A program made the translations under genes and the position numbers. Below are positions 7,326 through 57,692 of a stretch of DNA of 64,000 bases, piece by piece. Within the stretch, counting starts at the first letter, position 1; every line of letters begins with the position of its first letter. Below the pieces are notes generated by a model. It was given only the letters and a program-made list of their open reading frames with translations, ran no database searches and was not told the DNA's origin. The stretch is taken from positions 100,237 to 164,236 of the forward strand of contig JAGOQE010000002.1 in NCBI GenBank assembly GCA_017991635.1. The letters are read 5' to 3'. Source of the DNA: Minisyncoccota bacterium. GTDB taxonomy: Bacteria; Patescibacteriota; Minisyncoccia; Phycocordibacterales; Phycocordibacteraceae.

Positions 7326-7781
7326 CTACTCGAGGCTCTCGTACTCTTCGAGAACCTCAATGAAGGGATACTGCTTCGAGCTGAAGGCATAGCCCCGAAG
7401 GATGTCTCGCATCCCACGGTACTCTTCCCTATAGCCGAAGTTGAACGAAAACCGATTCGCCCACCAGTAGAAGCCGAAGCCCTGCACACTGATGAACGTA
7501 CGGTAGTGTTCCGGAACAAATCGAACGAGCTTGCAGTTGAGGACTGCGCGCGCCGACGTCGTGATGCAGACGCGTGCGGGCCTTATATCAACGACGGAGA
7601 CGAGCACCCACGGAGGGTGTGCATGCCATCCAGCGCGCGCTTGAACACCGAGTTCGCCAGAGGCAACATTCCATGTGAGCCCTCGTTCCTGTGGCTCAAG
7701 GTAGTTAACCGAGAGCGCGAGCGGTGTCCCGAGCAGAAGAAGCCCGCCAAGGACAATCGCAATCAGTCGGAGGTGCCTCAT
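7326..7781 (-). CDS. Membrane-anchored protein, paralog 1 of a tandem pair (unknown family), GC-rich
   Basis: 151 aa. N-terminal TM/signal anchor. Shares 'R(A/V)VLNCKLV(R/K)F', 'ARxGW' and 'YPF..VL.E' blocks with the adjacent ORF. GC-rich, with overlapping spurious plus-strand ORFs. Confidence 0.45.
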   Translation of the reverse strand: MRHLRLIAIVLGGLLLLGTPLALSVNYLEPQERGLTWNVASGELGVQARAGWHAHPPWVLVSVVDIRPARVCITTSARAVLNCKLVRFVPEHYRTFISVQGFGFYWWANRFSFNFGYREEYRGMRDILRGYAFSSKQYPFIEVLEEYESLE

Positions 7782-8323
7782 TTCGTTTCAGGCGCCGGAG
7801 TCAGAGTCGGAGCCGGCGCCTGAATGATCACCGGCTCAAGCTCTGTGGGCGCTTCCTCGTTCTTGAGCTCGCGAAGAACGGTCAGGAACGGATAGTTCCG
7901 CCCGCTTCCGTCATACGCGTAGCTTTTCAGGATTTCTTCCAGATTGACCTGGGTGTAGTCCTGACGACCGTGCCAGGACAGAAACAGTGCGAGGCCGGCC
8001 GGATTGAATTTGACCAGCTTGCAGTTCAGCACGCGCGAGTTCGCATTGATGCAGACCTGCATCGGACGCGTGTCGACGGTGTTGATTTTGTCGAGGAACG
8101 GGCGTTTGGGATTCCACCCGGTTCGGGCAAGGACGGTGGTCTCGCCGCTGGTGGCGTTGAACTTGTAGCCAATTTCGTAGTTGTCCACGAACTTCCAGCA
8201 CATGAAGAACCAGATGAGGCCGACGATGGCGGACAGGACGAGAAAGCCAACGACGCCGATAACAATCTTCAAACCACGGGACATTGAGTGCTCCTGGGCT
8301 CTCTTGGTTAGGGTGCTTGGCAC
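7778..8323 (-). CDS. Membrane-anchored protein, paralog 2 of a tandem pair, with Pro/Thr-rich C-terminal tail
   Basis: 181 aa. N-terminal TM. Conserved blocks shared with 7326..7781. 4-nt overlap suggests an operon. Confidence 0.45.
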   Translation of the reverse strand: MPSTLTKRAQEHSMSRGLKIVIGVVGFLVLSAIVGLIWFFMCWKFVDNYEIGYKFNATSGETTVLARTGWNPKRPFLDKINTVDTRPMQVCINANSRVLNCKLVKFNPAGLALFLSWHGRQDYTQVNLEEILKSYAYDGSGRNYPFLTVLRELKNEEAPTELEPVIIQAPAPTLTPAPETK

Positions 8324-21410: not shown

Positions 21411-22043
21411 TCATCCCCCAATAGTGTTCCCCACAAATTCCTGCACCAGGTGCCAGAACTCAATTACGAGAACTGCGAGCTTCTCCCACGCGTACGCGAG
21501 GGCAGAAAATGCATTTCCGTTCAGGAGCTGCTCCGGTTCAGGAAAGAGGACTTGGGCAAGTTCGATGCCACCGAAGACAAAGAACGCCCAAGAAATGTTC
21601 GAGAGAACCACGCTCGCCAGGAACGTCCGCCACTCCTCGCCTTTCATCTGATACGAATCTTTCGGTCGCATCAGAATCAAGGTTGTCATGGGGTCGTGCC
21701 ACAGGGTCAGGTAGATGAAGGCAAAGAATCGTGAGATTCCGCCGACAACACCGTTTGAGCCAATCCTGAAACGCTTGCGAGTTGCCTCGCCTACGTCCTT
21801 GATGGTCTCAAACCCAAGCGCATCACGCATTCCTCTGTTGCCCACCGTGTCATAGAGTCCGATAAGACCCCAGCAGATGAGAAACGAAAGGAACATCATC
21901 ACACTGGTCCCAAGGACGAGACCGAGGTGAAGAATTGCGTACGGGTAGAGCGCGTACTCGAAGAACTTGTCGAAGAGCCAAAGGCTCGTGTGAACCGTGA
22001 CCCAGAGAGGGCCACGGGTCTTGATCGTGTTGATCAGTCCCAA
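21411..22043 (-). CDS. Polytopic membrane protein, unknown function
   Basis: 210 aa, 5-6 TM helices. Confidence 0.4.
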   Translation of the reverse strand: MGLINTIKTRGPLWVTVHTSLWLFDKFFEYALYPYAILHLGLVLGTSVMMFLSFLICWGLIGLYDTVGNRGMRDALGFETIKDVGEATRKRFRIGSNGVVGGISRFFAFIYLTLWHDPMTTLILMRPKDSYQMKGEEWRTFLASVVLSNISWAFFVFGGIELAQVLFPEPEQLLNGNAFSALAYAWEKLAVLVIEFWHLVQEFVGNTIGG

Positions 22044-25497: not shown

Positions 25498-26565
25498 CTA
25501 CAGTCCTTCAGCTTTCAAGTCTTCAATGGCTTTCTTTGCTTTTCCTGAAAGTTTGCGTGGAAGTGTTGCCGTGACGTGCACGAGAAGGTCACCGGCCCCT
25601 CCCTCAAAGGAGACACCCTTACCGCGAAGACGTAGTGTTTCTTCTGGAGTAGACATTGGAGGTACTTTCACTTCAAGTTGTTTGTCATCAATGGTGGTGA
25701 CAGAGACCGTGGTACCAAGAAGGGCGTCAGTGAGTTTAATAGGAAGCTCCATGATGAGGTTTGCTCCCTGTTTCTTGAATGTTGGGTGAGGCTTTACGTG
25801 CACCTTGATGTAGAGGTCGCCTGACACGCCACCTTTGATAGCCTCTCCGCCCTGAGGCATGCGAATCATTTCTCCGCCATCAATACCGCGCGGGATTTCA
25901 AGTTTAATCTCCTCTTCCTTACGGAGGACTCCCTTACCGGTACACTTTGCACACTTTTCCTTAGGCACCTTTCCTGTTCCCTCACAGGTGGCACACGTGC
26001 GTACGCTGGTGAACGCTCCGAGTGGAGAGTTTCTCGTCTCGTGCATCTTGCCCTGACCGTTACAGGTCTTGCAGGTGTCCATAGAGGTTCCTGGTTTTGC
26101 GCCAGAGCCCTCACAGGTGTCACACTTCCCTACCTTCATGATAAGGACGCTTCGCTTCACACCGAGAACTGATTCTTTGAATGAAATCTCAACATCAATA
26201 GAAATGTCACGTCCACGCTTCACGCGCTGACGGCCTCCTCCGAACATGTCTCCAAATCCCTCAAAGAGGTCTGAGAGGTCAAACTCAGCATACTGTGAGC
26301 CTCCACCAAATCCTCCGAACTGACTGAAGTCAAAGCCCTGTGCACCCGCGCCTCCGGCTCCTGCAAAGGTCTGTCCGTAGTTGTCGTACTCACGACGCTT
26401 CTTATCATCGCCCAAGACTGAGTATGCTTCGGTGATTTCCTTGAACACAGCTTCGTCACCTCCCTTGTCTGGGTGGTGCTTCTGAGCAAGCTTTCTAAAC
26501 GCCTTTTTAATGTCGTCTGTGGTGGCCTTCTTCTCCACGCCGAGGATGTCGTAGTAATTTTTAGC
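25498..26565 (-). CDS. dnaJ: Molecular chaperone DnaJ
   Basis: J-domain 'NYYDILGV...HHPDKGG'. Gly/Phe-rich linker. Four CxxCxGxG zinc-finger repeats. Start is probably at MAKNYYDIL (the ORF extends to 26652). Confidence 0.9.
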   Translation of the reverse strand, partial: AKNYYDILGVEKKATTDDIKKAFRKLAQKHHPDKGGDEAVFKEITEAYSVLGDDKKRREYDNYGQTFAGAGGAGAQGFDFSQFGGFGGGSQYAEFDLSDLFEGFGDMFGGGRQRVKRGRDISIDVEISFKESVLGVKRSVLIMKVGKCDTCEGSGAKPGTSMDTCKTCNGQGKMHETRNSPLGAFTSVRTCATCEGTGKVPKEKCAKCTGKGVLRKEEEIKLEIPRGIDGGEMIRMPQGGEAIKGGVSGDLYIKVHVKPHPTFKKQGANLIMELPIKLTDALLGTTVSVTTIDDKQLEVKVPPMSTPEETLRLRGKGVSFEGGAGDLLVHVTATLPRKLSGKAKKAIEDLKAEGL

Positions 26566-26614
26566 CATAGTGAGAACACTATACACCGATATGTCTAGGG
26601 TATCAAAAATAGAA

Positions 26615-26647
26615 AAAGGGCGGTTTGGATTTCTCCAAACCGCCCTT
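26615..26647. repeat. Hairpin repeat copy 1 (GGGCGGTTTGGATTTCTCCAAACCGCCC), flanks a GC-rich inserted gene
   Basis: Near-identical (1 mismatch) to 27126..27157. Both are perfect stem-loops. Confidence 0.6.
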
Positions 26648-26670
26648 CTCACCTGCGTCGTCGCCTAGTT

Positions 26671-27051
26671 CTACTTGGCGAGGAAGCAGGCTTCGGAGAC
26701 GTAGGTGATGTTCGCCCCTTCGGCGACATCGGCCCGTTCGTTCTCGCAGACGTCCTTCGTGGTGAAGGCGCCCACCTGTTCGAACCGACGGCCGTTCATG
26801 TTCGGCTCGGCGTTCTGCACGAGGAAGGACCAGGGCGCGGTGCCGACGGTGTCGGGGTTGACCCAGGCCTCGGGCAAAGCGGAGTCAGGATTGCTCCAGA
26901 CGACCGGCGTCGGCGCCATCACGAGCAGGGTCGGCTTCGGGGCGGGTTCGGGAGGAGCCCGCTTCACGAAGAAGCGTGACTCCGCGGCGGAGGCGGTGCC
27001 CGCGACCATGAGGGCGCAGACGGCGATGGCGGAAAAGATCAATTTCTTCAT
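26671..27051 (-). CDS. Small secreted protein (signal peptide), GC-rich, compositionally foreign
   Basis: 126 aa. 'MKKLIFSAIAVCALMVAGTASAAE' signal peptide. GC-rich third codon positions unlike the flanking dnaK/dnaJ. Sits between two copies of an about 30-bp hairpin. Confidence 0.5.
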   Translation of the reverse strand: MKKLIFSAIAVCALMVAGTASAAESRFFVKRAPPEPAPKPTLLVMAPTPVVWSNPDSALPEAWVNPDTVGTAPWSFLVQNAEPNMNGRRFEQVGAFTTKDVCENERADVAEGANITYVSEACFLAK

Positions 27052-27125
27052 TTGGTCGGTTCTCCCTATGACCTTGAATGAGTGAATATATTATAACACA
27101 CGTGTCAAGTTTTGCTAGGTGAGAC

Positions 27126-27157
27126 AAGGGGCGGTTTGGATTTCTCTAAACCGCCCC
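27126..27157. repeat. Hairpin repeat copy 2 (GGGGCGGTTTGGATTTCTCTAAACCGCCCC)
   Basis: Direct repeat of 26615..26647. Confidence 0.6.
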
Positions 27158-27172
27158 TATGCACGATGATGC

Positions 27173-27406
27173 TTAGAGCATTTTGTCTTTGGCTTCTTTC
27201 CAGACTTGCAGAAGCTCGCGGGCCATGTGGACGACGAGTGCTCCGGCGCTGTACACCACCAACATCACCACAACCCAGCCAAAAGGCATCTCACGAACGC
27301 TCTTAAGGAGCACCTGAGTGCTTCCAAAGAACAGCTGAGACATCGCGAGCATGAGCAGGGTGCTGAGTACTGCACCGACGAGGTAATTGATAACCATGTT
27401 CCTCAT
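27173..27406 (-). CDS. Small 2-TM membrane protein (77 aa)
   Basis: ORF with two hydrophobic helices, located inside the dnaK-dnaJ interval. Confidence 0.3.
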   Translation of the reverse strand: MRNMVINYLVGAVLSTLLMLAMSQLFFGSTQVLLKSVREMPFGWVVVMLVVYSAGALVVHMARELLQVWKEAKDKML

Positions 27407-27420
27407 AGGGTTCTCCTGTT

Positions 27421-27681
27421 CTAGTTTCGGCGGATGCCGACGGCAAAGTAGGCGAATTGCCCGTGAATGGCGAGGTCATGCGAGATACGACGCTGAACGA
27501 GAGTGATGCGCTTGCCTTCATGAAGCTCGCGCACCCTTGCGATGACTCCCTTGTCGGCAGTTGAGGTGTGCTCACCGACGTGATACACGACCTTGTCTCC
27601 CGCGGCGATTTCGCTGAGCTTCGTCAGAATTGCACTTGGTGCCAAGGGCTCCTGCCCGGTGTAGCGCAGTACGTTGTACAT
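27421..27681 (-). CDS. Small hypothetical protein (86 aa)
   Basis: ATG at 27681 preceded by AAGGAG (6-nt spacer). Encodes MYNVLRYTGQEPLAPSAILTKLSEIAAGDKVVYHVGEHTS... Confidence 0.35.
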   Translation of the reverse strand: MYNVLRYTGQEPLAPSAILTKLSEIAAGDKVVYHVGEHTSTADKGVIARVRELHEGKRITLVQRRISHDLAIHGQFAYFAVGIRRN

Positions 27682-27691
27682 GTTCTGCTCC

Positions 27692-27937
27692 TTAGTGCTT
27701 GAACTTGTGAATGAAGTGCTTGATGCGCATGCGAAGAAGTCGCTTCTTTGCGGCTTCTCTGCGATAGCGACGGTCGTACTCGCGTTCCTCGTCCACGCTG
27801 AGCGCCAAAACAACGTGTCTTTTGGGAAGACTCTGACGAAGTAAGGCTGTCAGCAAGAGTAGGAAGACGACAACATAAATCATGACACCCTCATGTGCTG
27901 TTCTGATGAGCACTATGCCATAGGCAATACAAAACAC
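27692..27937 (-). CDS. Small membrane protein (81 aa) with basic C-terminus
   Basis: TM helix + Arg/Lys-rich tail. Immediately downstream of dnaK. Confidence 0.3.
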   Translation of the reverse strand: MFCIAYGIVLIRTAHEGVMIYVVVFLLLLTALLRQSLPKRHVVLALSVDEEREYDRRYRREAAKKRLLRMRIKHFIHKFKH

Positions 27938-27977
27938 CAGCGCGGGCTTTGCCCACGCTGGTGTTCCGACTTCCTCC

Positions 27978-29870
27978 CTAATCTTCCTTTGGCTTCTCTG
28001 TGAACTCAGCGTCCTTTGCCTCTTCCGCAGGGGTCTCCCCTGCTTCAGGAGAGGTTGCGTCTCCTTGGTCCTTCATCATGGCTTCGCCAATCTTTGAAAG
28101 AGAGGTTGAAAGTTCCTCGGAAGCTTTCTTAATTCCTTCAAGGTCCTCGCCTTCGCGCACGGTACGAAGTGCTGCGATTTTTTCGTTCACTTCCTTCACC
28201 ACTTCTTCACCTGCCTTCTCGCCATTATCCTTGATGGCCTTCTCCGCAGTGTAGATCATCTGTTCAGCGATGTTCTTCGCTTCAATGACTTCCTTACGCT
28301 TTGCGTCTTCAGTTGCATGCGCTTCTGCATCAGCCTTCATCTTCTCAATATCTTCAGGTGAGAGACCTGTTGAGCCTTCAATGCGGATAGACTGCTCTTT
28401 TCCGCTCGTTTTCTCTTTTGCCTTCACGGTAAGGATACCGTTTGAGTCCACGTCAAAGGACACTTCAACTTGTGGAAGCCCACGTGGAGCTGGTGGAATG
28501 CCATCAAGGTTGAACTTTCCAAGAGACTTGTTGTCATTAGCCATTGCGCGCTCTCCTTGAGTCACGTGAATTTCTACTGACGTCTGATTGTCTGCCGCTG
28601 TTGAGAAGACCTGCGTCTTTGAGGTTGGAATTGCAGTGTTTCGCTCAATGAGCTTTGTTGCCACACCTCCCATGGTCTCAATAGAAAGTGAGAGAGGGAT
28701 AACATCAACAAGGAGAATATCTTTCACGTCTCCCTGGAGAATTCCCGCCTGAATAGCAGCACCAATAGCCACTACTTCATCAGGGTTCACGCCCATATGA
28801 AGTTCCTTTCCGAAGAGCGCCTTCACCTCCTCCTGAATCTTAGGCATGCGTGTCTGACCACCCACAAGAACGATCTCGTTAATGTCAGAAGGTTTGATGT
28901 TTGCCGCTTCAAGAGCGCGCTTGGTGATATCAATTGAGCGGGTGACAAACTCACTTGCAAGCTCCTCAAGCATTGCGCGAGTGAGCTTGATGAGAAGGTG
29001 CTGAGGAGCGCCGTCTGGGCCTGCTGTGATGAATGGGATGTTCACCTCAGTCTCAGCTGAAGAAGAGAGCTCAAGCTTTGCCTTCTCTGCAGCTTCATCA
29101 AGTCGCTGGAGAGTGAGTGGGTCCTTTGAGATATCAATACCGCTCTGCTTTTTGAACTCGTCAGCAAGGTAGCGAACAATCTTCTGGTCAATGTCACGAC
29201 CTCCCATATGTGAGTCGCCGTCTGTTGAGCGCACCTCAATAACGTCATCTCCTACTTCAAGAACTGACACGTCAAAGGTGCCGCCTCCAAAGTCGTAGAC
29301 AACAATCTTCTCGTCCTTCTTCTTATTAAATCCGTACGCGAGAGCTGCTGCAGTAGGTTCGTTGATGATGCGAAGGACATTAAGTCCTGCAACTTGACCT
29401 GCTGCCTTTGTCGCATTTCGCTGTGCGTCGTCAAAGTATGCGGGTACGGTGATGATAGCTTCGGTGATTTTCTCGCCGAGCTTTGCCTCTGCGTCTGCCT
29501 TCATCTTTGAGAGAATCATTGCGGACACCTCCTCAGGACGGTAGTCCTTGTCGCCTAGAAATACCTGCACGCCTCCGTCAGGACCTGCCTTTACTTCATA
29601 CGGAACGATATCCTTGTCCTTCTGCACTGCTTCATCCTGGAAGCGGTGACCCATGAAGCGCTTAATACCGTAAATGGTGTTCTTTGGGTTCGTGACGGCC
29701 TGACGCTTTGCGAGAGTTCCTACAATGCGCTCACCGTTCTTAGCGATAGCAACCACTGAAGGCATGGTGCGTGTTCCCTCTGCGTTTTCCAAAACACGAG
29801 GCTCACCTCCCTCCATGATAGCCATTGCGGAGTTTGTTGTTCCAAGATCAATACCAAGAATTTTTGCCAT
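27978..29870 (-). CDS. dnaK: Molecular chaperone DnaK (Hsp70)
   Basis: 630 aa. '[18 protein letters not shown]', '[10 protein letters not shown]', '[11 protein letters not shown]' Hsp70 signatures. Acidic C-terminus. Confidence 0.95.
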
Positions 29871-29948: not shown

Positions 29949-30494
29949 TCAAGTGTGGGAGAAGACGCGGACCATCGCGGGGCGAACGACCACATCCTGT
30001 ACCTTCCAACCCTTCTCTAGCACCTGTGAGATGGTGTCATCCTTGCTCATGTCGTCTGTTGGGTCCTGCCCCAGTGCCTCGTGAAGGCTTGGGTCAAAGG
30101 CCTCACCTACTAAGCCGAACGAAACGAGTCCTACTGTCTTCCCGGCGCTCTCCAACTGCTTCATGATTGCCTGAAACCCTTCTGGAATGTCACCCTGTGC
30201 GCTTGCGCGAGCGAGTGAATCCATAACAGGAATGAATGCTTCGGCCGTCTTTACTGCACCATTCGACTTCGCTCTTGAGACATCTTCATCAAAGCGCTTG
30301 AGGGCATTTACATAATCTGCCTTCGCGCGTTGCCATCCGTCTAAATATTCCTGCTTCTCTTTCTTGCAGACAGCAAGTTCCTGTTTCACTTTCTCGACCT
30401 TTGACTCGGCCCGAGATTCAGTAGCTTCGAGCTCTTCTTCGCTCATGCCTTCCTCAATATCTTCTGTATCAATAATTACATCATCATCGCTCAT
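29949..30494 (-). CDS. grpE: Nucleotide exchange factor GrpE
   Basis: 181 aa. Acidic N-terminus, coiled-coil 'LAVCKKEKQEYLDGWQRAKADYVN', C-terminal β-domain. Confidence 0.85.
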   Translation of the reverse strand: MSDDDVIIDTEDIEEGMSEEELEATESRAESKVEKVKQELAVCKKEKQEYLDGWQRAKADYVNALKRFDEDVSRAKSNGAVKTAEAFIPVMDSLARASAQGDIPEGFQAIMKQLESAGKTVGLVSFGLVGEAFDPSLHEALGQDPTDDMSKDDTISQVLEKGWKVQDVVVRPAMVRVFSHT

Positions 30495-30538
30495 ATTTGC
30501 ATTATGAATGAATTTTTTATCTCTGTCAAAAACGTGAA

Positions 30539-30570
30539 TGGCCTCTCCTTCTTTGGGAAAGGAGAGGCCA
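30539..30570. promoter_or_regulatory. Perfect 12-bp inverted repeat immediately upstream of grpE (possible heat-shock operator or terminator)
   Basis: GGCCTCTCCTTTC-TTTGGG-AAAGGAGAGGCC. Not a canonical CIRCE. Confidence 0.35.
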
Positions 30571-30799
30571 AAATCACACGTTCTATATTTTCAACGGTCC
30601 ACTCCGTGGAGCGCATATAGGTTACGGGCGAAAATTCAATGTCCCGCGCGGGCAAAACAGGACAGAATTTATGTGTGATTACCCGATTGGTTAAGGAACT
30701 GCCAAACCCTGCGGCGACGCACAGCCCCTCTTGTGTCACGACGACCCAATACATCGCCGAAGATAGCGTCGCCCTAGCACTATACAATATATGGCTATT

Positions 30800-31051
30800 T
30801 TAGCCAGTCTTTATGAAAAGTGATTCTTTTCCCTCTCGTGAAAGTTTTTTGATACCAGCTTCTCTCTTTAAGGCTTCGCTTCGTGTATGAAATGCTTCTT
30901 GGTGAACAAGCACTACTGGCCGTCTTCCGCTCGTGTACTTTGCGCCCTTAGGGCTTTCATTGTGTTCCTTTACTCGACGCAGAACATCCGTTGCAATCCC
31001 TGTATAGAGTGTGTCGTCAGAACATCGGAGGATGTAGACGAAGTACGGCAT
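30800..31051 (-). CDS. GIY-YIG nuclease-superfamily protein (UPF0213-like)
   Basis: 'YFVYILRCSDDTLYTGIATDVLRRVKEHN' GIY-YIG motif. Start is probably at MPYFVYIL. Confidence 0.65.
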   Translation of the reverse strand: MPYFVYILRCSDDTLYTGIATDVLRRVKEHNESPKGAKYTSGRRPVVLVHQEAFHTRSEALKREAGIKKLSREGKESLFIKTG

Positions 31052-31052
31052 A

Positions 31053-32561
31053 CTACTTGCCGAGGTCCAAGGTCTCGTCAATTCTGATTTGCTCCACAAA
31101 TTCAGGGACGTGGCTCACGAGAACGAGTGCACCCTCATAGGCATCAAGCGCTTTTGCAATGACGGGAATGTGACGGAAGTTAATGTGGTTTGTCGGCTCG
31201 TCCAAAATAAGGAGACCAGGACGAAGAAGAACGAGTTGCGTGAATGCCACAAGCCCCTTCTGACCTTCAGAGAGTGCGCCGACTTTCTTGCGCATTGCCT
31301 CACCGTTAATAAGGAAGCCTGCCGCAGTAGCGCGCATGTTCTCTTCAATAGGGCGCTCCATAGCATCCATCAAGGTTTCAAACACCGTCTTCTCAAAGTT
31401 TAGGGTGGAGAAGTCTTGGCGGTAGTAGCCCACCTTCGTGCCCGGGAGAATTTGAGCTCCCTCTGCAGTCCCCTTTGCAAGAGACTCAAGAAGGGTTGTC
31501 TTTCCAATACCGTTAGGACCCTTCAACAGAAGGTGACGATTCTTACGAAGCTCAATTTCTGCTTTGTGTACCTTTGGATTGTGCGTCTTAGGGTCAAGAG
31601 TGGTGTATGAAGAAATGCTGAGGATATTTCCCACCAAGTCGTCAGGACATGGAATGGTGAAGTTTCGGATTGTCTTGTCCTCTCTGCGGATATCCACTTT
31701 GTCTTCTTCCATTTCCTCAATTTCGTCACGCATTTTCTTTGCAACGAGACGCATCTTTCCTCCCTTCTGAGCGAAGTAGTTCATCTTTTCCTTGTTGTCC
31801 TGAATCTTCTTTGCAAGCTGTGCGTTCTGACGATTCTCTCGCTCAATACGCGCGGTGATGTCCTTCAATACGTTGTGGTAGTTACCTACATACTGCTCGA
31901 GCTTTCTCGTGTGTACGTCGAGGTAGAGGACGCCGTCAGAAAATGAGTTAAGGAATTCTGCATCATGGGAAATAACCATACAGGTCTTCTCGTAGTTCAC
32001 GAGAAAGTCGGTGAGGTGCTCGATACCAGCAGTGTCGAGATTGTTCGTTGGCTCATCAAGTAGAAGTAGGTCAGGGTTTTGAATGAGGGCAGATGCGAGG
32101 AGTAGGCGTGCCTGCTGACCACCAGAGAATGAGCCGATAGTGCGTTCAAAAATAGAAATATTCTTTGGCACGTGGAGATTCACGACATCAAGAACCTTCT
32201 CAATCTTTGGGTCAATGTCGTAGACCTTTTCGCTAAAGCACGCCTCAAAGAATGCACGCACAGTAAGGTCGCGCTCCTTGGGCGCGATTGCTTGGCGCGA
32301 TAGCGCGATGGTAAGTCCTTCCTGTTTCCAGATTTTGCCGTCCTCAGGAGGAAGTTCGCCCGTAATGAGCTTGAAAATAGTACTCTTGCCTGCGCCGTTT
32401 TGACCCATGAGGGTGACCTTCATACCTTTCTTCAAAGAGAAGTCCACGTTGTCGAGGATTGGGTAGTTTTGCCCGTAGTTAAAGGAAAGTTCCTCAAAGC
32501 GAAGAACCGCTTCGCGCGGTCCTTGTGGAGTATTTGCTTTTGAGCCGTTCTTCCCTGCCAT
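31053..32561 (-). CDS. ABC-F family ATPase (two tandem ABC domains, no TMD)
   Basis: 502 aa. Two Walker A (GQNGAGKST; GPNGIGKTT), two signature motifs (FSGGQQARL; LSEGQKGLV), inter-domain charged linker. Confidence 0.85.
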   Translation of the reverse strand: MAGKNGSKANTPQGPREAVLRFEELSFNYGQNYPILDNVDFSLKKGMKVTLMGQNGAGKSTIFKLITGELPPEDGKIWKQEGLTIALSRQAIAPKERDLTVRAFFEACFSEKVYDIDPKIEKVLDVVNLHVPKNISIFERTIGSFSGGQQARLLLASALIQNPDLLLLDEPTNNLDTAGIEHLTDFLVNYEKTCMVISHDAEFLNSFSDGVLYLDVHTRKLEQYVGNYHNVLKDITARIERENRQNAQLAKKIQDNKEKMNYFAQKGGKMRLVAKKMRDEIEEMEEDKVDIRREDKTIRNFTIPCPDDLVGNILSISSYTTLDPKTHNPKVHKAEIELRKNRHLLLKGPNGIGKTTLLESLAKGTAEGAQILPGTKVGYYRQDFSTLNFEKTVFETLMDAMERPIEENMRATAAGFLINGEAMRKKVGALSEGQKGLVAFTQLVLLRPGLLILDEPTNHINFRHIPVIAKALDAYEGALVLVSHVPEFVEQIRIDETLDLGK

Positions 32562-55140: not shown

Positions 55141-55848
55141 GTGACTTCCACTCCCTCTTCCAAAACGGTCCTCTTCTGGATCGCTGTCGGCGCCGCCATC
55201 TTCGTCTCGCTCTTCTCGGTTGCGACTGCGCATGCGCAGGAAGCTCCGGCCGAGGACGGTATTTCCGTCACGGCCTACGCCGATTTCGTTGGCGGTCGTG
55301 ACTTCGGTGACCAAGGCTTCAGCTTGACTGATGACCCGGTCGTCGAGTTCGGCGTCACCGCCTGTTCGGGCGCGTGGTGCGCTGACCTCTGGCGCGCCGA
55401 GTCCCTCGTCGGGAATGTCGCCGACCACGAAACTGACCTGTCCGTCATTCGCACGGACACTGTCGGGGACTTCACCGTCGAGACCAAGTTCGCATTCCTC
55501 GAGCTTGACGGTCCCGAGGTGTGGGACGTGAAGCTCACGGTCTCTCACGACCTCGGCGAGCGCTGTGAAGCGTCCGCCAGCTACGAAGTGATGTGGGCCG
55601 GCTTCAACGACCACGTCACCAAGGGCGAAGTGGCCTGCTCGTTCCCGACACCGGTCCAAGGCCTCACCGTCGACGCTTCCGGCGCTGTCGCCTACAGCAC
55701 ATGGTCGGGCTCCGTGACGCCGAGCTATCAGCTCGGCCTCGGCTACGAGCTTCGGCCGGGTCTCTCCGCCTCCCTCTACCTCAAGGGGTATGAAGGGCAA
55801 GACGACGGGAACGTCCTTCTGGGTCTCGGCATCTCGCAGACCTGGTAA
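55141..55848 (+). CDS. Exported β-rich protein (signal peptide; C-terminal aromatic residue), GC-rich and compositionally foreign
   Basis: 235 aa. Signal 'VLFWIAVGAAIFVSLFSVATAHAQEA'. Alternating hydrophobic β-strand pattern. Ends '...GLGISQTW'. G/C dominates codon third positions. Confidence 0.5.
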   Translation: MTSTPSSKTVLFWIAVGAAIFVSLFSVATAHAQEAPAEDGISVTAYADFVGGRDFGDQGFSLTDDPVVEFGVTACSGAWCADLWRAESLVGNVADHETDLSVIRTDTVGDFTVETKFAFLELDGPEVWDVKLTVSHDLGERCEASASYEVMWAGFNDHVTKGEVACSFPTPVQGLTVDASGAVAYSTWSGSVTPSYQLGLGYELRPGLSASLYLKGYEGQDDGNVLLGLGISQTW

Positions 55849-57050: not shown

Positions 57051-57692
57051 TTAGTCGCGTTTGGGGAGAGGCGGAGGCGCGAGCGCTTCCATCTCCCCGG
57101 TCTCGTACGCCCGTTTGGCGTCCGCGATCAGGACGATCTGGTACATCTTCTCGAGCGCCTCGGGGCCGGTGAACCTCGTGGTCCCGATGCGAGCGACCAG
57201 GTCATCCGACGGATAGAAGTTGCCGAGCACGATACGCTCGAGGATGCCGGACTTGCGCCAGGTGTCATAGCTCCGGAGCATGTCCAGGAGCTTGTTCTGG
57301 TCGTCCTTGTATTCGGCACGCCCGGCCTGGATGATGTCGATGATCTTGTCATAGACATCGAGACCATTCGTGGTCGGGTAGGCTTCCGAAATCGCGTTCA
57401 TCAGCGAACCGTTCTGGCCGAAACCACCTTCGCCATAGCGACCCTTCACTGCGTCGACCAGCACTCGGTCGAGTTGTTCAGCCTTGCGGTCGGCGATGCC
57501 GAGCGTTTCGCGGTAGGTCGAGATGAAGGTCGAGAGCGTGTTCTGGTTGCTCTGGTACTGGGTCGAAAGCTGAATTTCGCGACGAACGGCTTCCCGTTGG
57601 ATGCCGTTAGCCATGCCCCAGAGGGTGAATCCGCCCACCACAAGGGCGGCAACGATGCCGAGCAGTACGGCGTTTTTCTTCAGGAATTCCAT
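57051..57692 (-). CDS. Membrane-anchored protein, tentatively LemA-like; GC-rich
   Basis: 213 aa. N-terminal TM. 'LVDAVKGRYGEGG' and 'EAYPTTNGL' blocks loosely resemble LemA. High GC3. Confidence 0.35.
   Translation of the reverse strand: MEFLKKNAVLLGIVAALVVGGFTLWGMANGIQREAVRREIQLSTQYQSNQNTLSTFISTYRETLGIADRKAEQLDRVLVDAVKGRYGEGGFGQNGSLMNAISEAYPTTNGLDVYDKIIDIIQAGRAEYKDDQNKLLDMLRSYDTWRKSGILERIVLGNFYPSDDLVARIGTTRFTGPEALEKMYQIVLIADAKRAYETGEMEALAPPPLPKRD

Follow-up and report, generated by a model that had tools for sequence, protein, structure and literature searches.

The dnaK-dnaJ region of a Candidatus Pacebacteria genome raises the question of how a small gene of deviating composition comes to stand between two nearly identical hairpins. 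The region lies in a 64-kb stretch of DNA, called the window here, of a metagenome-assembled genome annotated as Candidatus Pacebacteria, within the Candidate Phyla Radiation (CPR); all the relevant genes are on the minus strand and positions are given in window coordinates. The gene, p126 (locus tag KBC16_01970, 26671-27051), encodes a 126-aa protein with a predicted signal peptide. In the initial annotation it was regarded as a foreign gene, inserted into the dnaK-dnaJ operon like a cassette by integron-attC-like or hairpin-targeted recombination. We give a slightly better than even chance to another reading, namely that p126 is a moron-like accessory unit in a recombination hotspot and that the resident terminator was duplicated at the boundaries of the unit.

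The hairpin pair could be verified. The window contains the pattern GGGCGGTTTGGATTTCTCYAAACCGCCC two times only, at 26618-26645 (copy 1, downstream of p126) and at 27129-27156 (copy 2, upstream of it), with one mismatch between the copies; no further copies were found at up to 3 mismatches, and 0 matches to the hairpin pattern were expected in 100 shuffles. Each copy is 28 nt long, a 14-bp inverted repeat with a 4-nt loop. With its flanks included the repeat grows to 35 nt (91% identity), and no other direct repeat of the whole window is as strong. On the gene strand the downstream copy (26603-26650 with its T-tract) reads GAGAAGGGCGGTTTGGA-GAAA-TCCAAACCGCCCTTTTTCTATTTTTG; the terminator scan assigned it 17 pairs, 8 of them G-C, a loop of 4 and the T-rich tail CTATTTTTGA, and the RNA fold gave it a GNRA loop and an energy of -25.6 kcal/mol. 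It is followed on the gene strand by TTTTTCTATTTTTG, where the T-tract runs into the -35 element of dnaJ. This copy, having both the GC-rich stem-loop and the U-tract of intrinsic terminators, is the predicted intrinsic terminator of p126. The upstream copy (27127-27158) forms the 3' end of a unit of three small genes, p63, p87 and p77, and reads AGGGGCGGTTTAGA-GAAA-TCCAAACCGCCCCT followed by TGTCTCACC. It has one A-C mismatch, a weak T-tract (UUGUCU) and a fold energy of -21.4 kcal/mol, and it was not called by the terminator scan. In the window the duplicated segment comprises the hairpin, 1-3 nt to its left and about 7 nt to its right (YTTKTCT), which would amount to a whole terminator up to roughly the expected end of the transcript; we record this as an observation only.

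The gene between the hairpins appears to be complete in itself. Its promoter and 5' untranslated region (5'UTR; 27052-27126, read directly from the sequence) contain TTGACA at 27103-27108, the extended -10 element TGTTATAAT at 27090-27098, and a Shine-Dalgarno sequence, GGGAGAA (27060-27066), 8 nt before the ATG in an AT-rich leader. The consensus promoter scan missed this promoter because the spacing of its -35 and -10 elements is non-canonical. The stop codon lies 25 nt before the downstream hairpin. Promoter, Shine-Dalgarno, open reading frame (ORF) and GNRA-loop terminator make the hairpin-p126 region a self-contained predicted transcription unit. The protein starts with MKKLIFSAIAVCALMVAGTASA|AE, which by rule (KK, hydrophobic core, ASA|AE) was read as a signal peptide; next comes a linker rich in Pro, and the C-terminal part, about 55 aa with 2 Cys, forms a conserved domain. 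No Pfam or NCBIfam family matched it. AlphaFold2, run with 3 sequences, gave a mean pLDDT of 57, with a beta-beta-alpha-beta-beta C-terminal domain at pLDDT 75-84, and comparison of the fold with the PDB by Foldseek returned nothing better than E = 0.78. A second, antisense ORF of 126 aa (26705-27085, plus strand) was judged a by-product of the GC-rich codons; the minus-strand frame was favoured because it has the Shine-Dalgarno sequence, the signal peptide, in-frame indels among homologues and a ratio of non-synonymous to synonymous divergence (dN/dS) below 1. The deviating codon usage was also confirmed: the GC content at third codon positions (GC3) of p126 is 0.88, the maximum of the window, against a median of 0.48 (sd 0.10) for 68 window ORFs and 0.50-0.54 for dnaK, dnaJ, grpE and lysS. 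In 200-nt windows GC rises to 0.66-0.71 over the gene, compared with about 0.49 window-wide, and the promoter with the 5'UTR has 0.40 GC.

For comparison, 80 loci were fetched around dnaJ homologues (loci other than the window are given as L numbers), to which short contigs were added via homologues of p87. A hairpin with a T-tract overlapping the dnaJ -35 is nearly universal among the 80 loci. Homologues of the hairpin precede dnaJ by about 50 nt in L018, L019, L025, L028 and L031 (GGGGCGG...GGA-loop-TCC...CCGCCCC), with stems that vary by compensatory changes which keep the pairing (TTTGGA/TCCAAA, CACGGA/TCCGCG, TCTTGA/TCGAGA). On the coding strand the loops are of GNRA type in most lineages (GAAA, GCAA, GCGA, GAGA), and the fold energies range from -21 to -28 kcal/mol. 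Where the spacer is short (25-90 nt), the hairpin is visible in L038, L032 and L053; in the first two a T-tract follows the stem and the hairpin simply is the dnaK terminator. Since pairing and GNRA loops are kept, the element should be an RNA structure and not a protein-binding site. A heat-shock operator of the CIRCE (controlling inverted repeat of chaperone expression) or HAIR (HspR-associated inverted repeat) type was rejected, the sequence varying by lineage with pairing kept and GNRA loops. The comparison thus supports the view that the hairpin upstream of dnaJ is the ancestral, RNA-level resident terminator of the clade and that the second copy is its duplicate.

The arrangement of hairpin, gene and hairpin is not confined to p126. 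A scan of 657 kb of this and related genomes (3,025 hairpins) for near-identical hairpins 100-4000 nt apart found genuine pairs of terminator hairpins only in dnaK-dnaJ spacers, namely those of the window, L013, L014, L015, L020 and L094, and over about the same 657 kb the hairpin family of the window is confined to this spacer. A search of species-representative genomes with a degenerate pattern returned 12 generic hairpins, all unrelated, from Firmicutes and further phyla, with the source genome missing from the matches. In case of L015, a 115-aa signal-peptide gene with its own promoter lies between two copies of a different hairpin (GGGCGGCYA-gcgYgatg-CGGCCGCYCC), the duplicated segment extending about 10 nt past the stem, and L019 and L025 have a single copy of the L015-type hairpin at the same place. 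The same hairpin family brackets another gene in L020. In L094, the dnaJ of which is 40% identical, a 348-aa membrane-protein gene stands between copies of an unrelated 26-nt palindrome, which is its dnaK terminator. The copies match within a genome and differ between lineages, which points to duplication of a resident site, or homogenisation in place, and not to sites borne by a cassette. Taken together, the alleles support gene gain or loss at the terminator hairpin as a real and recurrent process; this part of the earlier interpretation, with its duplicated hairpin, held, and its integron-attC-like part did not.

Two further features were noted at these loci. L020 has about 290 nt (1163-1454) with no convincing ORF between its second hairpin and dnaJ; the segment carries a TTGACA-17-TATAAG promoter and GC-rich paired segments, matched nothing in Rfam, and could represent a small RNA not yet characterised. 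In L094 an AT-rich element of about 55 nt, built of two parts, precedes both grpE and dnaK (1233-1289 and 1833-1888); it may be a heat-shock operator.

Among relatives the dnaK-dnaJ spacer varies from 25 nt to 2.8 kb, and its gene content differs between strains. Reading from dnaK to dnaJ, with T1, T2 and T2' denoting types of the dnaK terminator, the window contains T2, p63, p87, p77, hairpin, p126, hairpin; L013 contains T2', p87, p71, hairpin, p113, hairpin; and L014 contains T1, x69, hairpin, p63, p87, hairpin, p131, hairpin, the extra x69 encoding 69 aa. Three alleles are cut by contig ends: L100 (T2, p87, hairpin, p126), L097 (T2, p87, p71, hairpin, p126 promoter) and L099 (T2, p63, p87, p77). 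L098 is an empty allele, with T2', p87, a single hairpin and dnaJ and with no p126. The most conserved spacer gene is p87, with 9 homologues, all in this spacer where flanks are visible. The others, p63, p77, x69 and p126, are present or absent independently among close relatives: p77 occurs in the window, L096 and L099, in a divergent 71-aa form in L013 and L097, and is absent from L014, L098, L100 and L101; p63 occurs in the window, L014 and L099 and is absent from L013, L096, L097, L098, L100 and L101. The window, L013, L014 and L100 have p126, L097 has the p126 promoter and L095 a distant homologue, so that loss is the parsimonious reading for L098, and the empty allele would have arisen by recombination between the two hairpins. 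At the place of the missing p63 in L013, the junction (window 27884-27925 against L013 9346-9392) lies between two short GAGG repeats resembling ribosome-binding sites, which suggests a short-homology deletion. Extra genes of 96-107 aa, each with its own hairpin after it, were seen between the secreted-protein unit and dnaJ in L095 (1609-1899) and L015 (4555-4878).

Segments of the region are apparently exchanged between strains by homologous recombination. By sliding-window identity and alignment, the window and L014 agree to about 99% over a tract of some 480 nt (about 26490-26960), compared with 85-93% in its flanks. The tract covers the 3' two-thirds of p126, the downstream hairpin, the dnaJ promoter and the first approx. 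80 nt of dnaJ, and its ends fall within p126 and within dnaJ and do not coincide with the hairpins; it resembles a recent import by recombination from one lineage into another. Moreover, the dnaK terminator type of the window is shared with L013 and that of L014 with L095, yet the window is closer to L014, and this conflict with the divergence of the flanking genes indicates exchange between strains. The synonymous divergence of p126, which is below that of its flanking genes, also speaks for recombination. Within a genome the hairpin copies seem to be homogenised by gene conversion. Both copies of L013 share a derived A>G change (TCCAGACC). Copies B and C of L014 (1190-1215 and 1718-1743) have identical stems and the loops TTCA and TGAA, the one being the reverse complement of the other; the 99% tract shows few differences, two of which fall in the TGAA loop, and these loops point to conversion between copies or to loop inversion between palindromic repeats. 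Since the copies convert each other, their near-identity does not date the duplication. A longer direct duplication including the dnaJ -35 (TTGATACCCTAG) is weak in L014 (156/2000 shuffles) and not significant elsewhere.

A recent foreign origin of the gene was not borne out. Homologues of p126 were found as P0002 (83%, L014), P0003 (67%, L013) and a fragment in L100, and a profile search of 1.84 billion representatives added the distant P0004 (46% identity in global alignment, L095) and beyond the family only two spurious repetitive proteins (P0005, P0006). Relatives in high-GC taxa, which the initial annotation had led one to expect, did not appear: among 5.8 billion clusters and the 1.84 billion representatives there was no homologue outside the dnaK-dnaJ spacer, and all those recovered with known context are from this spacer in genomes of about 50% GC. 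Conservation of the gene and both hairpins at this position in diverse relatives had been named as evidence against an insertion, and largely this is what was seen. At the same position L013 and L014 share with the window the promoter, the GC-rich ORF and both hairpins, at synonymous divergences (dS) in dnaK and dnaJ of about 1.0 (window against L013) and 0.5 (window against L014). The promoter and 5'UTR are kept in L013, L014, L097 and L100, and in L095 beginning with the -10. The dnaK C-terminus of L095 has 79% amino-acid identity; there the leader is homologous, the homologous hairpin is followed by TTTTTCTAT, and the GC3 of the p126 homologue is 0.84 against 0.51 for dnaK. The dN/dS of p126 is 0.36-0.66 and the homologues differ by in-frame indels. 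GC3 is 0.84-0.88 in all homologues, and the shift does not extend beyond the coding sequence, with 40% GC in promoter and leader. Being limited to the coding sequence and persistent over this divergence, the GC shift argues that p126 is not a recent high-GC import; the high GC3 would be a maintained, stable property of the coding sequence.

The other genes with the highest GC3 of the window (0.68-0.79) lie at 55141-55848 (plus strand) and, on the minus strand, 57051-57692, 7326-7781, 7778-8323 and 21411-22043, and all of them encode secreted or membrane proteins. That at 55141-55848, of 235 aa, lies between a holB-like gene and mreB and is syntenic and equally GC3-rich (0.81) in L102. In a genome of 49% GC they seem to form a stable, GC3-rich class of envelope genes.

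On these grounds the reading of p126 as a moron-like unit in a recombination hotspot can be given in steps. Small accessory units (p63-p87-p77, the 69-aa gene of L014, p126) would fill a hypervariable spacer of a narrow Pacebacteria lineage, and a terminator copy, hairpin plus about 7 nt of T-tract, would mark the 3' end of the upstream unit, so that each unit is terminated and insulated. The duplication probably arose when a unit was inserted beside the resident terminator, as a target duplication and not as a site carried by a cassette; candidate routes are template switching of replication at a stable hairpin and unequal or illegitimate recombination. The direct repeats would then permit precise deletion of a unit.

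A number of points weigh against this reading. The upstream copy lacks a proper T-tract and would be at best a weak terminator, which leaves its terminator role uncertain. The duplicating step was not observed, and no junction or intermediate points to a mechanism. The hairpin pairs need not all share one origin, and in L020 the bracketed gene and its neighbour may be tandem paralogues that have diverged (two collinear matches, E = 0.01). Whether L098 reflects gain or loss rests on parsimony over a mosaic, recombining region. The reading offers no account of the constant GC3 of 0.88 in p126, and the dS of this gene, 2-4 times below the values for its neighbours on either side, could mean horizontal spread of the unit after the lineages split. 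Finally, GGTGAGA after the upstream copy and TCTCACC before the downstream copy are complementary (42/2000 shuffles reach the score in the window), which would fit a circular intermediate with a longer hairpin; the complementarity is not significant in L013 or L014 and about 16 comparisons were made, so that it is suggestive only.

Of the alternatives, a purely local evolution survives best, though we consider it improbable. Here a gene with its terminator would have been duplicated in tandem, with divergence or replacement following and deletions occurring later, and p126 would be an old, vertically inherited resident whose GC-richness is selected. The paralogue-like genes flanking the first hairpin copy of L020 are what such a history would leave, the 126-aa family stands at the same locus even in the distant L095, GC3 is stable across the family, and concerted evolution can hold old copies identical. 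Yet p126 has no detectable similarity to the p63/p87/p77 unit, nor do the inserts of L015 and L094 resemble their neighbours; L019 and L025 compared with L015 show a clean indel of an unrelated gene beside one hairpin, and the conflict of the dnaK terminator types with the flanking divergence indicates strain exchange.

Still more doubtful is a specific process in which terminator hairpins of the CPR dnaK-dnaJ spacer serve as the substrate of a gene insertion that duplicates the whole terminator, brought about by a trans-acting structure-specific enzyme or by fork stalling and template switching. The data are compatible with it because the duplicated segment extends on its right side to 7-10 nt beyond the stem, where a terminated transcript should end, and because all the duplicated pairs in the 657 kb are in one spacer, and both facts are not explained otherwise. 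If true, such an insertion would be a recombinase-poor chromosomal route to the acquisition of "morons", which repeatedly installs units for secreted or membrane proteins.

Marginally weaker again, and in our judgement unlikely, is a hairpin-targeted cassette system of integron-like or Campbell type, in which circular units with one hairpin each are recombined into the resident terminator by a recombinase encoded elsewhere. The junction of the hypothetical excised circle would read ...GCAGGTGAGAA-hairpin-CTTGTCTCACCTAGC..., and the flank complementarity mentioned above would lengthen its hairpin, with a cross-lineage 8-mer match in 14/2000 shuffles. Co-oriented units that end in the same hairpin and are present or absent independently, the empty allele of L098 with exactly one hairpin, the extra unit of L014 directly after the dnaK terminator, and the low dS of p126 would all suit such a system. 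No integrase or transposase was found in the 64 kb, however, according to the ORF map, which is otherwise of housekeeping type, and a Pfam scan of 10 unassigned ORFs; nearby there was no recombinase, only a small GIY-YIG protein, a PD-(D/E)XK nuclease and an Mrr-like protein with no evident link. The units have their own promoters, and their gene families are found only at the dnaK-dnaJ locus. The hairpin copies are identical within a genome and unrelated between the window, L015 and L094, which means that a mobile unit must match each host terminator. The recombination tract is not bounded by hairpins, and the complementarity fails in L013 and L014.

Recent horizontal gain from a high-GC donor, with chance insertion between two similar terminators, is very improbable and largely refuted: the GC3 difference and the 60-64% GC of some same-clade relatives speak for it, while the search results given above, the unit kept in place across dS of about 1 and in L095, its host-like low-GC promoter and 5'UTR, and two 28-nt hairpins one base apart, which cannot be chance, speak against it.

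An attC site is an imperfect palindrome of 57-141 bp with R''/L''/L'/R' boxes (RYYYAAC ... GTTRRRY) and extrahelical bases. Such an identity was rejected for the present hairpin, a 28-nt stem with 12-14 perfect pairs, a 4-nt loop, no bulges, no attC boxes and arm ends GGGCGG/CCGCCC. With integron cassettes the locus shares small, mostly single-gene, co-oriented units that each end in a hairpin repeat, and variable content at a fixed site. It differs in having no intI, attI or Pc, in the short perfect terminator and in gene families not found elsewhere; in addition, integron cassettes are mostly promoterless with differing attC sites, whereas here there is an own TTGACA/TGTTATAAT promoter and the hairpins are near-identical per genome. 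Like repetitive extragenic palindromic (REP) sequences and bacterial interspersed mosaic elements (BIMEs), the hairpins are palindromic, GC-rich and about 30-35 nt long, and they lie at the 3' ends of clustered genes, but REPs are dispersed in tens to hundreds of copies and linked to RAYT (REP-associated tyrosine) transposases, and here there are 2 copies in 64 kb. An origin from an IS200/IS605-type element or a palindrome-associated transposable element (PATE) was rejected as well. Such elements have subterminal hairpins at either end, do not duplicate their target and leave an empty site that lacks the hairpins; here the empty alleles L098, L019 and L025 keep one full hairpin, and no TnpA was found in the window. 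None of these three kinds, integron, REP/BIME family or IS200/IS605 derivative, describes the locus.

Closer parallels are found among accessory genes for which no mobility apparatus is apparent. A phage moron is one ORF that brings along a promoter and a terminator and has been inserted amid two conserved genes (PMC4378225, summarising Juhala/Hendrix); the same source calls the acquisition of morons "mysterious". The p126 unit is alike in its own promoter and factor-independent terminator, its deviating composition and its absence from the close relative L098, and dnaK and dnaJ are adjacent in relatives with a 25-90-nt spacer. It differs in lying in a bacterial chromosome, flanked by a duplicated resident terminator, with a composition that has long been stable; nothing phage-like was seen among the 10 Pfam-scanned window ORFs, and the loci carry ribosomal, chaperone and tRNA-synthetase genes. 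The minimal mobile elements of Neisseria are alternative small gene sets at one site between conserved genes (Saunders & Snyder 2002, cited in PMC1797815). By the differing gene content of strains between dnaK and dnaJ the present locus has the character of such an element, and the 480-nt tract and the dnaK terminator types indicate homologous exchange via the flanks; here, the units are delimited by a repeated, locus-specific terminator hairpin. CPR bacteria are generally regarded as naturally competent, and the exchange may be mediated by transformation. In Salmonella Typhimurium the wzy locus is flanked by 113-bp direct repeats, deletion alleles keep one repeat, and no dedicated recombinase was identified (PMC12074656). 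The likeness lies in one envelope-related gene amid housekeeping genes, direct repeats and one-repeat deletion alleles; the present repeats differ in being palindromic terminators of about 32-35 nt, and the case is known from sequence alone.

How small accessory genes such as morons and minimal mobile elements enter between conserved genes with no visible mobility machinery is an old open question. The locus provides filled and empty alleles, several independent events and a signature, the duplication of the resident terminator, in the setting of CPR bacteria with their reduced genomes and few classical mobile elements. It also calls for caution, since a strong GC3 anomaly limited to one gene can last long and is no sure sign that the gene was recently transferred. 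In practical terms the finding is of modest importance, unless the mechanism of duplication proves specific.

The surroundings of p126 consist of grpE (29949-30494), dnaK (27978-29870), dnaJ (25498-26568), a gene for a 182-aa membrane protein, and lysS, according to the ORF map. The gene does lie in the dnaK-dnaJ interval, as had been claimed, but the hairpins do not bound the whole insert; toward dnaK there are three more small ORFs, p63 (27692-27883) and p77 (27173-27406), encoding small membrane proteins of 63 and 77 aa, and p87 (27421-27681), the 86-aa product of which starts with MYNVLRYTGQEP.... Pfam and NCBIfam contained no family for the 86- and 182-aa proteins and gave only sub-threshold matches for the 77-aa protein, with bit scores well below the curated cut-offs. 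The dnaK terminator hairpin (27933-27965; AACACCAGCGTGGGC-aaa-GCCCGCGCTGGTGTT) is unrelated in sequence to the duplicated hairpin, and the only result of the Rfam search over the spacer was a sub-threshold PrrB/RsmZ match on this terminator (16 bits, gathering score 44). In the promoter scan dnaJ has its own promoter, TTGATA-17-TATAGT (26578-26606), the architecture of which is kept across the clade; therefore dnaK and dnaJ do not form a single operon here, and the operon setting had to be given up.

The -10 of this promoter (TATAGT) ends 9 nt before the ATG in the window and 9-11 nt before it across L013-L047, and no Shine-Dalgarno sequence is visible (window 26569-26606), which suggests that the dnaJ mRNA is leaderless or near-leaderless across the clade. 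Elsewhere in the window, the adjacent, overlapping genes at 7326-7781 and 7778-8323 (minus strand) encode paralogous membrane-anchored proteins that share the motif ...RP..VCI...R.LNCKLV.F.P..., and the pair seems to have been duplicated in tandem. A small stand-alone GIY-YIG nuclease-domain protein, conserved in L013, is encoded upstream of grpE (30800-31099, minus strand), beyond a single short ORF (30491-30787).

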